In this document: positions 2,856 to 7,941 of the stretch, piece after piece
Layout of the letters: every line of letters begins with the position of its first letter
Position numbering within the stretch: position 1 is the stretch's first letter
Assembly: GCA_042217545.1 (NCBI GenBank)
Contig: JBDGSM010000061.1
Coordinates: 1-7,941 of the forward strand
Source of the DNA: Candidatus Nanohalobium sp.
GTDB lineage: Archaea > Nanohalarchaeota > Nanosalinia > Nanosalinales > Nanosalinaceae
Direction of reading: 5' to 3'
DNA: 7,941 nucleotides
Position numbers and translations under genes: made by a program
Notes under the pieces: generated by a model
What the model saw: the letters and a program-made list of their open reading frames with translations, nothing else
The model's database searches: none
What the model was told of the DNA's origin: nothing

Positions 2856-3062
2856 GGGCCCTTAGTTCAGTCTGGCAGAACGTCCCCCTTGCAGGAACTG
2901 GTTACGCTCAGATTCCACGAAAACCTCTTCCGAGGTTTTCTGGAGCAGAAGACCTCACAAAGGTCTTCGAGACACGCAAGGAGGCCTTCAATGAAGGCCT
3001 CTCGGAGGCGGAATCAGTTCGGAGACAGGGGAAGGCCCAGGGTTCAAATCCCTGAGGGTCCA
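2856..3062 (+). tRNA. tRNA-Ala(UGC) with a 133-nt intron at position 37/38; exons 2856-2893 and 3027-3062; CCA not encoded
   Basis: Acceptor stem GGGCCCT/AGGGTCC with the G3:U70 alanine determinant and A73. D stem GTTC/GAAC. Anticodon stem TCCCC/GGGGA with loop CT-TGC-A|A. T arm CAGGG-TTCAAAT-CCCTG. Confidence 0.95.
2894..3026 (+). other. Archaeal tRNA intron with a relaxed bulge-helix-bulge junction
   Basis: Bulges C36-A37-G2894 and A3025-C3026-A38. Central helix CUUG/GGAG gives 3 pairs plus a G.G. A 9-bp closing helix GAACTGGTT (2895-2903) pairs with AATCAGTTC (3012-3020). Removing the segment restores a canonical cloverleaf. Confidence 0.9.
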
Positions 3063-3199
3063 CTTTCAGTGAACATCAGGAATTTGAATCGAGAAAACTT
3101 GTTTTCGTCTTCAAATCCCTGAGGGTCCAACTCACGTTTAATTCGTTGGACATCAGTCCACTAAACCTTTGGTTTAGAATCCTGAGGGTCCATCTCACG
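3043..3199 (+). repeat. Tandem repeats of the tRNA-Ala 3' end embedded in hairpin units
   Basis: TTCAAATCCCTGAGGGTCCA at 3043-3062 is repeated exactly at 3110-3129 and partially (AATCCTGAGGGTCCA) at 3178-3192. Degenerate inverted copies occur at 3070-3088 and 3147-3156. Confidence 0.9.
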
Positions 3200-3200
3200 G

Positions 3201-3211
3201 GTTTTTCTTTC
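3201..3211 (+). terminator. Candidate oligo-T terminator for the tRNA transcript
   Basis: GTTTTTCTTTC directly after the repeat units and before the stop of the convergent MFS gene. Archaeal terminators are typically U-tracts. Confidence 0.4.
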
Positions 3212-3216
3212 AGCAG

Positions 3217-4488
3217 TTAGTTTTCTCTGTAGACGAAGTACGCAGTGTAAAGGATGTAGAATACTGCTGCTACGAGGAGGGAGCCGAAGAGGAAAGGACT
3301 CCAGTATGCGAAATATGTGTAGAGGCCTCCTGCGATTACCGGTCCTGTTGCCCGAGCGAGGCTTCCGGCGCTCTGTGTCAGTCCGAATGCGCCGCCCTGC
3401 ATCGAGCTATCGGCGGAGCGGGATACAAGCGTGTTCAGGGATACGTTAAGGACTCCGTTTCCGAACGCGTATACGGCGAGGATAACCAGTAGAGCTATCA
3501 GGCCTGGCGTAAGGATCGCCTGCCCGGGAATGAACCATAGAATATTCCCGATCTGGGGTGCGAAAGGTATCAGTGCAAGGCCTATTCCTCCAATTATGGC
3601 TCCGGCGATTCCGAGGTAGCTTTCGTCGTATCTTTCTGTCAGTTTTCTTATCAGGCCTCCCTGGATTATGGCTATGAGAACTCCTACGTATACAAGCAGA
3701 AGGCCTCCCTGGGTGGTGCTGAACCCGAACTTGTCCTGGAGGTAGGGTAGGAACATCACCTCCATGCCTGAGAAGGCGAAGGAGGTCAGGAAGAAGGAAG
3801 TTATCAGTTTTCTTAGCTTTGAGTCCGATAGAGCATCCTTCAGTGCCGAGATCCCCATCTCTCCCTTGACGCTGAAATCTGCCTTTGTCTCCGGCAGGAA
3901 TGCGTATGCCATTCCCAGGTTCAGCAGGCTCAATGCTGCGGCGGTGAAGCTTGGAAGCGTGTACTTGTTGATCGTCAGGAAGCCCAAGATGTCAGAGAAA
4001 AACTGTACCGTTGGCCCATAGCTCATTAACGCTCCGAGTCCCGGTCCGAATACGAATCCGAGTCCGAAAGCGGCACCTATCAGGCCCAGGCCAGCGGCTC
4101 TATCCTCTTCCGAGGTTATATCAGCGATATAGGCCTGGGCTGCTGCTATGTTACCTCCCATAGCTCCTGCGATAAGCCTAGCGATGAATAGGAAGATCAG
4201 GCTTGAAGCAAGTCCGAAAAGCGTCCAGGCTATGACACTGCCCAGTATAGAAAATATCAGTATTGGTCTGCGACCTCTCTGATCGCTCAACCGTCCAAGT
4301 ACTGGCAGTGCGAAGAACTGTGTGATCGAGTACGATGCCGTCAGAAGGCCTATGATTAATGCGTTGGCGCCGAAGCTTTCGGCGTAGTACGGCAGTATGG
4401 GGATGATGATTCCGAAACCCGGCAAGTCGATAAATACTACTGTCAGTACTGTGAAAAGCGATCTTCTCTGAGATTTCGACAGATCCAG
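3217..4488 (-). CDS. MFS transporter, TetA/DHA1-like drug:H+ antiporter family (start probably CTG at 4488; first canonical start is TTG 4425)
   Basis: About 12 hydrophobic segments, motif A (GRLSDQRGRRP), motif B-like (FIARLIAG) and antiporter motif C (GFVFGPGLG). The in-frame upstream extension LDLSKSQRRSLFTVLTVVFIDLPGFGIIIPILP completes TM1. Confidence 0.9.
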   Translation of the reverse strand: MDLSKSQRRSLFTVLTVVFIDLPGFGIIIPILPYYAESFGANALIIGLLTASYSITQFFALPVLGRLSDQRGRRPILIFSILGSVIAWTLFGLASSLIFLFIARLIAGAMGGNIAAAQAYIADITSEEDRAAGLGLIGAAFGLGFVFGPGLGALMSYGPTVQFFSDILGFLTINKYTLPSFTAAALSLLNLGMAYAFLPETKADFSVKGEMGISALKDALSDSKLRKLITSFFLTSFAFSGMEVMFLPYLQDKFGFSTTQGGLLLVYVGVLIAIIQGGLIRKLTERYDESYLGIAGAIIGGIGLALIPFAPQIGNILWFIPGQAILTPGLIALLVILAVYAFGNGVLNVSLNTLVSRSADSSMQGGAFGLTQSAGSLARATGPVIAGGLYTYFAYWSPFLFGSLLVAAVFYILYTAYFVYREN

Positions 4489-5091: not shown

Positions 5092-5526
5092 TCAGGTGCT
5101 GGCGTAGTACCATACGCGGGAGGCCTCATCTGCTATCATCTGTTGCTGGGTGGTTGTCTCTGCGACATCTGCTGATCTGGACCAGTTCCAGTCCTCTCCT
5201 TTGAGGATGCGGTGGTTCCAGAGATCGGGAAGCCTTCGGATCGGCGAGGTTGACTGGGCATAATCATCTATATCAAGGCCGTCGTGGAGGTTCTGGCCGG
5301 TAACAGATGGTTTGAACCTGGCTCTTTCCAGGTTCTTGATTATATCTGTCCTGACCTCTCTTTCATGATCCTCGTCATCTCTTATCGTATCAACTCCTGG
5401 CTCTGAATCATCGGTCCTGTGGAAGAAGTCATTCAGGGTTCTTACAGGGTCTCTGGAGATATCGCCTTCAAGATCGTGCAGGTCATAGCCGTGGTCCTCG
5501 AGTACTCCTGCAGCAGTCTTACTCAA
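5092..5526 (-). CDS. Acidic hypothetical protein (start uncertain; frame stays open upstream to about 5600)
   Basis: 144-aa ORF, rich in Asp/Glu like its neighbours, filling the space between genes. No family recognised. Confidence 0.65.
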   Translation of the reverse strand: MSKTAAGVLEDHGYDLHDLEGDISRDPVRTLNDFFHRTDDSEPGVDTIRDDEDHEREVRTDIIKNLERARFKPSVTGQNLHDGLDIDDYAQSTSPIRRLPDLWNHRILKGEDWNWSRSADVAETTTQQQMIADEASRVWYYAST

Positions 5527-7602: not shown

Positions 7603-7613
7603 TGGTTTGTTTT

Positions 7614-7941
7614 GGAGGTGATCCAGCCGATGGTTCCCCAACGGCTACCTTGTTATGACTTAGCCCCCCTTGCCAAGCTCAGACTCGGGTTCGGAAAACC
7701 GAATCCTCGTCTGAACCTGACTCGGGTGACTTGACAGGCAGTGTGTACAAGGAGCAGGGACATATTCGCCGCTAGATGATGACCAGCGACTACTACCGAT
7801 TTCGCCTTCACGAGGCCGAGTTGCAGGCCTCGATTCGTATTAGGACCGGGTTTGGGAGGTTAGCTTCCCCTCTCGGGGTCGCATCTCTTTGTTCCGGCCA
7901 TTGTAGGCCGCGTGTATCCCAGAGCATTCGGGCCATACTGA
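7614..7941 (-). rRNA. rrs: Archaeal 16S rRNA, 3' end (continues beyond the right edge)
   Basis: Minus strand reads ...GAATATGTCCCTGCTCCTTGTACACACTGCCTGTC...AAGTCATAACAAGGTAGCCG...GGCTGGATCACCTCC. The archaeal CCCTGCTCCTTG signature and the anti-SD tail are present. Confidence 0.98.

Follow-up and report, generated by a model that had tools for sequence, protein, structure and literature searches.

Hairpin units bearing direct and inverted copies of tRNA gene ends form polar mini-arrays in Nanohaloarchaeota and Halobacteria and may represent small insertion cassettes

Contig JBDGSM010000061.1 of Candidatus Nanohalobium sp. (7,941 nucleotides (nt), here referred to as the window) was found to carry, at positions 3043-3199, an array of two hairpin-forming units directly behind a tRNA-Ala(UGC) gene, each unit ending in a renewed copy of the 3' end of that tRNA and beginning with an imperfect inverted copy of it. 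Units built on the same plan were identified behind other tRNA genes of this genome, throughout the phylum Nanohaloarchaeota and in cultured Halobacteria. Their cores are shared between different tRNAs, their tails match the tRNA at hand, the two parts meet in the T-loop, and the arrays are polar. We propose that the units are small non-coding insertion cassettes, anchored on the T-loop, which duplicate the tail of the tRNA gene and stack on its proximal side, an explanation that we hold about as probable as all others taken together.

The 12-mer CCTGAGGGTCCA occurred in the window at 3051-3062, 3118-3129 and 3181-3192, with direct-repeat spacings of 67 and 63 nt; 0.07 matches were expected, and three were reached in none of 200 shuffles. 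The left frame of the units, TGRACATCAG, was present at 3070 and 3147 (two matches, 0.04 expected). All features of the array are given for the plus strand. The first tail copy (3043-3062) lies within the real tRNA gene, comprising the T-loop, the 3' strands of the T-stem and acceptor stem, and the discriminator, and is followed by the spacer CTTTCAG (3063-3069). Unit A then consists of a left arm (3070-3088), which repeats the tRNA tail imperfectly and in inverted orientation, a tip (3089-3109) forming a GAAAAC/GTTTTC hairpin, and a tail copy (3110-3129) identical to 3043-3062 at 20 of 20 positions. A 17-mer of this tip, GAGAAAACTTGTTTTCG, has an exact second copy in a unit behind the tRNA-Gly(tcc) gene on contig C20 of the same genome. 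Unit B is introduced by a spacer (3130-3146), of which bases 2-7 (CTCACG) recur at 3194-3199, and comprises the left arm TGGACATCAG (3147-3156), complementary to the end of the tail copy with an A/GG asymmetric loop, the tip hairpin CTAAACC-TTT-GGTTTAG (3157-3177) and a tail copy (3178-3192) that is distal, shorter and more decayed, one base being deleted relative to the tRNA. Behind the array, at 3193-3213, lie TCTCACG, a run of five T residues and a second CTTTCAG (3207-3213). The presence of this 7-mer directly 3' of the tRNA and again past both units and the T run looks as if the array had entered a single site.

The 18-nt inverted arm at 3071-3088 was 83% complementary to 3043-3060 of the real tRNA, and likewise to 3110-3127 of the unit A copy. 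Folded as DNA and compared with shuffled sequences, units A and B gave z-scores of -2.73 and -3.23 (minus strand, -2.96 and -3.40), whilst -2.78 was obtained when the left arm of unit A was instead paired with the real tRNA end. The repeats, frame, hairpins and periods that the first-pass annotation had read from these letters were thus borne out on direct reading, as was its proposal that the left arm of unit A can alternatively pair with the real tRNA end. No covariance model of Rfam 15 matched 3043-3199 at E-values up to 1, and at seven other loci near related motifs Rfam recovered tRNAs only.

Collapsed or chimeric repeats in a metagenome bin could in principle mimic such an array, and several features of the assemblies point that way. 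On contig C17 of the source genome, arrays of tRNA-Glu(ctc) and tRNA-Ala(ggc) tails, near 16968 and 20483, are broken by gaps of 100 N with identical sequence on both sides, which indicates that the assembler failed to resolve the number of units. At locus L189 (metagenome-assembled genome (MAG) contig CAZAII010000027.1) a tRNA-Pro(cgg) unit ends in a tRNA-Arg(tcg) tail, followed by the start of an Arg-type unit, a junction reflecting either recombination of units between tRNAs or misassembly at the shared 50-nt core. Unitigs also break inside the window array, one 70-nt unitig from the probable source runs spanning 3035-3104. However, contigs of two sequencing runs, which are probably the source of the assembly and not independent of it, span the array (4561-nt contig, 3075-3500, 0 differences), and identical architecture was found in the complete isolates Haloferax sp. 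S1W and Halorarius litoreus and in single-contig relatives, making an assembly artefact hardly credible. In runs X1 and X2, a minor contig with a depth of 40-70 (compared with 300-480) links 3052-3104 to different sequence that ends in a small hairpin, and may derive from a strain carrying an extra unit. Another 19 runs matched small shares of the window, their matches being conserved tRNA exons of other organisms.

Within the source genome bin (G000; about 1.03 Mb, 49% GC), the last 15 nt of the gene recurred one to three times (up to two mismatches) within 400 nt downstream of 8 of the 34 tRNA genes, whereas none of the 34 had such a copy upstream; three additional, diverged cases emerged from a listing of T-loops. 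Searched strictly, with up to three mismatches, for the last 15 nt in inverted orientation, this genome gave no match, the inverted arms being too imperfect, and folding combined with T-loop-anchored parsing took the place of this search. Separately, the final 16 nt of tRNA-Leu(gag) were noted a second time at C14:5910, the gene itself lying on contig C6.

The units follow a common plan. The tRNA end is succeeded by a spacer of 0-22 nt; next come the T-loop and part of the T-stem in inverted form, the tip hairpin and, in direct orientation, a copy extending from the T-loop or T-stem to the discriminator. The spacer often forms a small palindrome with the last bases of the tRNA. Tandem T-loops 44-74 nt apart were detected in 21 of 41 related genomes, with the reversed-pattern control at zero in all 41, and the combination of inverted and direct T-loops was detected in 30 of 70 genomes of the phylum, with controls again at zero. 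The source genome itself escapes the strict inverted-plus-direct pattern owing to deviations in its inverted arms, and all pattern counts are lower bounds. From 54 stretches, 68 units were parsed, most of them of uniform size (59-79 nt); eight stretches, mostly at contig ends, yielded none. Across 70 units of 55-85 nt, the left arm paired with T-loop positions 55-60 in 84-90%, with the 3' strand of the T-stem in 57-86% and with the acceptor strand in 30-44% of cases. Named records carrying the unit motif belonged to Nanohaloarchaea.

The pattern was also present in all five cultured or complete Halobacteria analysed (Natrialba chahannaoensis, Haloferax sp. S1W, Haloplanus sp. C73, Halorarius litoreus and Halorubrum amylolyticum), with 3-15 matches per genome and none in the controls. 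In Haloferax sp. S1W, all nine modules lay 40-224 nt behind a tRNA gene on the same strand, and five of them had no mismatch over the 22-nt tail. The sole apparent orphan module, in Halorarius, was rejected on finding that it sits behind a minus-strand tRNA. In Halobacteria the inverted arm repeats the tail in inverse orientation over nearly its full length, a conserved core lies between the inverted and direct T-loops, and Haloplanus harboured three identical 102-nt units behind tRNA-Gly. Given these occurrences, the possibility raised in the first-pass annotation that the pattern is unique to the window locus no longer stands. The unit plan was additionally seen in a few archaeal MAGs (Nanoarchaeota, Woesearchaeota and bins labelled Methanosarcinales) and in one Acidimicrobiia MAG. 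A generic version of the pattern, which many bacterial and viral contigs also match by chance or otherwise, gave 80 loci in a species collection, 23 of which also had an upstream tail copy, nearly all of them haloarchaeal; those lacking it look like chance matches. The same generic pattern gave 120 matches in IMG/VR, of which nine sampled loci fell outside this family. Several IMG/VR loci (L193, L194, L198, L207, L216 and similar) were near-perfect palindromes of 51-58 nt containing inverted and direct copies of a tRNA-Met-like 3' half, many of them near the ends of viral contigs of 10-41 kb.

Comparison of the units with one another showed where shared sequence gives way to local sequence. 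Strict parsing gave 32 cores, in which 42 pairs reached at least 85% identity, 26 of these pairs joining different isotypes and 24 joining both different isotypes and different genomes; for instance, the cores of a tRNA-Lys unit of G012 and a tRNA-Pro unit of G024 were 98% identical, and window unit A was 89% identical to a tRNA-Phe unit from another family. Past the direct T-loop, the tail always matched the local tRNA. In all 35 units scored (those of 79 in which strict expressions found both cores), the A/G variant of the direct T-loop corresponded to the T/C variant of its inverted counterpart, and at locus L141 the unit and its own tRNA had different T-loop variants. The T-loop of halobacterial units is preceded by a constant stretch regardless of the T-stem of the tRNA. 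Together, the sharing of cores, the matching of tails and the T-loop variants place the boundary, on either arm, within the T-loop. Preceding the inverted T-loop, five bases complemented the unit's own T-stem slightly better than the T-stems of other units (3.29 compared with 2.96 of 5 positions, the former value being reached in 6 of 2000 permutations). Since the cores start with an inverted T-loop and finish with a direct one, they are bounded by terminal inverted repeats. In 7 of the 32 cores, with spacers of 0-4 nt, a 12-15-nt tail was present on both flanks, and in the other 25 the left side carried an additional 6-22 nt, partly inverted; an automatic test for flank duplication scored only 1 of 32, the right flank being cut at the unit end.

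The arrays were also polar. The identity of the tail copies to the last 22 nt of the tRNA fell from 21.2 in the first unit to 18.4, 15.4 and 13 in the second, third and fourth, and the first unit exceeded the last in 16 of 18 arrays (Wilcoxon p 4e-4), with detection set at up to three mismatches in the last 14 nt and very old units hence uncounted. The window array obeys this rule, with its perfect unit A and its shorter, deleted unit B. Relatives differ in whether units are present at all. The same-genus genomes G001 and G002 possess the tRNA-Ala(TGC) gene and have no tail copy within 500 nt behind it. At tRNA-Arg(cct) of Haloferax, genomes G042 and G048 carry a module plus a tandem copy of tail and trailer, and in G050, whose flanks are alignable, inverted arm, core and second tail are all missing. 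Block duplications were found within the arrays L130 and L110, units 1 and 3 of L130 being the same. The better preservation of the tRNA-proximal copy agrees with sequential insertion, and the gene-less, tRNA-directed character of the units with non-autonomous tRNA-targeting elements, both of which had been proposed in the first-pass annotation.

The observed layout, the junctions in the T-loop, the sharing of cores, the polarity of the arrays and the differing presence among relatives agree best with insertion at the tRNA. In the scheme we propose, a gene-less, hairpin-forming cassette of about 60-80 nt would insert in the 3' part of a tRNA gene using the T-loop as its anchor. The core would consist of the inverted T-loop, a linker, the tip hairpin and the direct T-loop, continued by the T-stem 3' strand, acceptor 3' strand and discriminator of the host tRNA; the tRNA would stay intact, with a second copy of its tail left downstream. 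New cassettes would enter beside the tRNA and push older ones outward to decay, yielding a polar mini-array in which the tRNA plays a role like that of a CRISPR leader or an integron attI site. An enzyme would carry out this insertion at a specific site, through staggered cuts beside the T-loop like those of casposase at tRNA-Pro, or through strand exchange with a folded hairpin (of the integron attC or CTX-phage type). Casposase chemistry fits the seven minimal units whose core is tail-flanked on both sides. For the fuller layout of tail, spacer, inverted arm, loop and tail copy, our own derivation from the mechanism of CTX phage and integron attC sites is that it would be expected as the product of a folded hairpin recombining with a double-stranded target, which would explain why the inverted arm is carried at all. 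As neither a casposase nor an attC/CTX-type enzyme was found to track the units, we infer the enzymatic, site-specific mechanism.

A number of observations weigh against insertion by a dedicated enzyme, and many concern the enzyme itself, with the proviso that, many genomes of the relatives being incomplete, the absence of a gene means that it was not found. The source genome gave one weak match to a tyrosine recombinase (35 bits, a zinc ribbon) at a contig end, no Y1 transposase and no match to Cas1 (PF01867). Tyrosine recombinases (PF00589) were not found in 16 of 41 relatives, including the unit-rich G040 and G030 and the single-contig G015, and the integrase-rich G004 and G010 gave no match to the unit pattern. 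Cas1 was matched in 3 of the 41 relatives, and in G001 it lies in a row of seven co-directional open reading frames (ORFs) that resembles a cas operon, a likeness judged from ORF sizes alone. The search for a parent element carrying genes came up empty; every module inspected in Halorarius and Haloferax adjoins a tRNA. A link to attachment (att) sites of haloviruses or plasmids, suggested in the first-pass annotation, found no support, the one tip motif searched in IMG/VR giving zero matches. Other such observations concern the units. Simple target duplication leaves the tRNA-specific part of the inverted arm unexplained, a part that is modest in nanohaloarchaea and near full-length in Halobacteria. 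The duplicated stretch in Haloferax reaches about 74 nt into the trailer and looks like unequal crossing-over with no fixed cut, and one tip type has long been retained behind Ser, Leu and Tyr tRNAs in many genera, which could mean a host function. Apart from these points, the surroundings of the full-length Cas1 copies of G001 and G015 were inspected for a casposon, and no tRNA-flanked casposon was seen; TnpB-like ORFs exist in the source genome.

The direct repeat from T-loop to tRNA end is the classic footprint of integrases that recombine in the T-loop, and the units might be decayed scars of large viruses or plasmids that once resided at tRNAs by means of tyrosine integrases, deletions having left attL and attR. 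Partial tRNA duplications beside prophages have been noted in Haloquadratum (PMC3119063). Such an origin is nonetheless very unlikely, as most of the units are uniform in size, their internal architecture and cores are conserved, and most include an inverted copy. Moreover, no kb-scale repeat of any tRNA end within a single contig was found in the source genome, no remnant of cargo was seen, and the units contained no ORFs. The window likewise lacks an integrase gene among its ORFs, in agreement with the first-pass annotation.

A recombinase-free origin has more in its favour. Hairpins behind tRNA genes could trigger template switching or fold-back synthesis, copying the tail first inverted and then direct, with T-loop microhomology permitting jumps or gene conversion that spread the cores, and unequal crossing-over resizing the arrays. 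In its support, no enzyme correlates with the units. The tips also proved not to be special to the tRNA-tail system and to belong to a genome-wide family: the source genome contains 220 perfect GAA...TTC hairpins, compared with 28-42 in block shuffles, and such hairpins are found after stop codons and inside tRNA introns. One tip type with 11 copies, for example, occurs in one tail unit, in the intron of tRNA-Arg(gcg), abutting tRNA-Pro, and in eight intergenic positions, mostly 8-36 nt past a stop codon. The palindromic spacer that often includes the last bases of the tRNA, the variable ends of the duplicated stretch, which can extend far into the trailer, the block duplications (L130 unit 1 = unit 3) and the equal folding of both strands are further points in support. 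Conversely, whole cores and linkers that are 90-98% identical between different tRNAs and genera are hard to obtain through independent local events, the same hairpins elsewhere were not seen, in a look by eye only, to acquire copies of the ends of their neighbours, and the strong polarity requires the added assumption of a gene-conversion gradient from the tRNA. On balance we regard template switching as rather improbable, and insertion of cassettes remains our preferred explanation.

As a separate observation on the intergenic tips, the tip between co-directional genes is often followed, just ahead of the next start codon, by another hairpin whose loop contains GGAGG (in the source genome, C26:27396, C52:6928, C35:3484, C23:8213 and others); the pair may act as a terminator and a translation-start structure.

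It is also conceivable, though improbable in our estimation, that the units are maintained by selection as structured 3' trailers co-transcribed with the tRNA, serving as a tRNA-like signal for tRNase Z, as a stabilising or terminating hairpin, or as a switch in which the inverted arm chooses between the real end and the decoy copy. Conservation of cores and tip stems across genera with variable loops, the persistence of one tip type with Ser, Leu and Tyr tRNAs, the ability of the inverted arm to pair with either copy at similar energy, and the terminator-like placement of the related hairpin 8-36 nt past stop codons would all suit such a function. According to PMC3495736, a stable 3' trailer of tRNA-His of about 60 nt was visible on a northern blot of H. 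volcanii. Selection of this kind is difficult to reconcile with the absence of units at the same tRNA in same-genus genomes and in Haloferax G050, with their restriction to some tRNAs (8 of 34 by the strict count plus the three diverged cases in the source genome), with the decay of distal copies and with the lack of an Rfam match for the window array. Folding energies of 58 units were -25.3 kcal/mol for the plus and -25.4 kcal/mol for the minus strand, with 27 and 31 units respectively favouring each (p 0.73), a lack of strand bias and hence of the G-U signature of selection on RNA. The decoy or antisense RNA role put forward in the first-pass annotation gained no evidence here, the equal folding of the strands not favouring RNA-level selection on the tRNA strand. 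Hoelzle et al. (2012) reportedly predicted 47 tRNA-like elements in H. volcanii, of which the examples tried were not cleaved in vitro, and this too counts against a functional trailer. The units were finally considered by hand as elements spliced at bulge-helix-bulge motifs; inspection by eye, with no dedicated search program run, found no 3-4-3 motif whose cleavage restores the tRNA, and the idea was dropped.

The same hairpins extend to tRNA introns. The intron of the window tRNA-Ala contains three of them (two GAA-type and one GAG-type), and its 5' module is common to the introns of tRNA-Glu, tRNA-Trp and tRNA-Ala(cgc). A 55-nt block of two GAA...TTC hairpins (columns 63-117 of alignment A1) is present in the tRNA-Ala intron of the source genome and of G002 and absent from that of G001, a difference that, as judged from the alignment, is an intron-internal insertion or deletion. 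The module GGTTACGCTC opens several introns, and a related motif, GTTACGCT, is found at the start of some tail units. From the GAA...TTC hairpins in both tail units and introns, the varying 55-nt block and these two modules, it may be speculated that hairpin modules home to the loops of hairpin-forming segments of tRNA genes, so that those entering by the T-arm would become tail cassettes and those entering by the anticodon loop would become spliceable canonical introns, the arrays being a visible record of archaeal intron delivery; we consider this doubtful. The route by which introns arrive is called open in a 2026 preprint on Asgard tRNA introns (10.64898/2026.10.13.758758).

The tRNA-Ala(tgc) gene at 2856-3063 (+) was identified with ARAGORN when introns were allowed. 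It comprises a 5' exon (2856-2893), a 133-nt intron at the canonical position in the anticodon loop (2894-3026) and a 3' exon (3027-3062) ending in the discriminator A, the ARAGORN call extending one base further, and it has the G3:U70 pair. Because of the intron, the gene is overlooked by Rfam and by ARAGORN in default mode, without the intron search, which reported no tRNAs in the window. The window is a complete 7.9-kb contig. A convergent MFS transporter gene (3217-4425, minus strand), whose stop codon is 25 nt from the array, is a neighbour outside the element; a search with its protein recovered only haloarchaeal and bacterial homologues and was uninformative on the units. The other protein genes encode a PEBP protein, an RNB fragment and an APH kinase. 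The RNB fragment is a 144-amino acid ORF (5092-5526, minus strand) whose similarity to the RNB (RNase II/R) domain covers no more than the final 70 domain positions, and it may be a gene fragment. On the minus strand, Rfam recognised two stretches of rRNA: positions 1-2331 correspond to the first 2331 nt of 23S rRNA, and 7613-7941 to the 3' end of 16S rRNA. The 16S end and 23S start are thus separated, on the same strand, by a gap of 5.3 kb holding five or six protein genes, and the tRNA-Ala(UGC) gene lies on the strand opposite to these rRNA genes. The usual place of tRNA-Ala(UGC) in archaea is the 16S-23S spacer.

Should the units be mobile, an unknown enzyme recognising the T-arm of tRNA genes would be implied, with a bearing on the origin of CRISPR-like polar arrays and, as such modules also fill the tRNA introns of these archaea, which are unusually long, on archaeal tRNA intron gain. 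Should they instead be functional trailers, they would amount to a level of tRNA gene expression that has gone unrecognised in a model archaeon. In practical terms, the units break metagenome assemblies and can mislead finders of tRNAs and genomic islands, and the tail modules carried by cultured Haloferax make the system testable at the bench.

No description of these units was found in the literature, in a search that reached few subscription journals and so is no proof of absence. The closest parallel is the casposon at tRNA-Pro of Aciduliprofundum boonei. According to PMC5137440, the casposase requires 18 bp encoding the T-loop of tRNA-Pro and an adjacent 15-bp segment, the latter being duplicated, and tandem insertions could follow in the view of its authors. 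The casposon described there resembles the units in its T-loop segment as target (the proposed one for the units), the adjacent duplication, seen for the units in the 7 of 32 cores with short spacers, the terminal inverted repeats, the intact tRNA and the possible tandem insertions proximal to the tRNA, as at a CRISPR leader. The units differ in being gene-less and only 60-80 nt long, with ends that are themselves T-loop copies. Their duplicated segment starts at about position 61, in contrast to 5 bp before the tRNA end for the casposon, many of them add a tRNA-specific inverted arm, and Cas1 was matched in 3 of 41 relatives and not in the source genome.

A second comparison is with the attL and attR sites of integrated elements. 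Williams (2002) is said to have reported that tyrosine integrases with crossover in the T-loop leave direct repeats from the T-loop to the tRNA 3' end. The units share this repeat, the regenerated tRNA and, as we propose, the capacity for stacked insertions; however, plain att sites have no inverted copy, the units have neither integrase nor cargo, and the integrase content of genomes does not track them. Integron attC sites and the attP(+) hairpin of CTX phage are imperfect palindromes in which certain positions stay unpaired and are conserved and the tip varies, and their arrays grow at a primary site. The units are likewise imperfect palindromes with a conserved unpaired region and differing tips (z -2.7 to -3.4 in the window), and the integration product predicted from this background would match their layout. 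Unlike attC, though, their T-loop departs from the attC core consensus, their 'cassette content' is 0-22 nt, and the target is a tRNA gene in place of attI or dif; the presence of tyrosine recombinase genes is uncorrelated with the units.

Short non-coding elements have been described in other archaea. According to PMC3119063, the SMR-A elements of Haloquadratum walsbyi (HqIRS42, 43 and 55) are non-coding, about 80-110 bp long, with prominent inverted terminal repeats, and insert into palindromes with no target duplication by an unknown enzyme. As described there, their targets are near-terminal palindromes of IS605-type elements and PATEs and not tRNA genes, and they carry no copy of a neighbouring gene end. 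Two other papers describe a tRNA gene disrupted by a recombinase-bearing element (PMC3293823) and a palindromic motif 10 bp behind tRNA genes of M. kandleri (PMC5217627). The units differ from miniature inverted-repeat transposable elements in that no transposase-bearing parent with matching terminal repeats was found, nor, among the modules checked in Halorarius and Haloferax, any orphan or gene-carrying copy. At E. coli tyrT, tandem downstream units of about 178 bp each contain the tRNA 3' end, at a single locus and with neither an inverted copy nor a hairpin core. More generally, tRNA genes are classic landing pads for mobile DNA, and their known users are gene-carrying viruses, plasmids and casposons; the units described here would add to these a gene-less hairpin cassette of 60-80 nt that uses tRNA genes likewise, across both the Nanohaloarchaeota and the Halobacteria.

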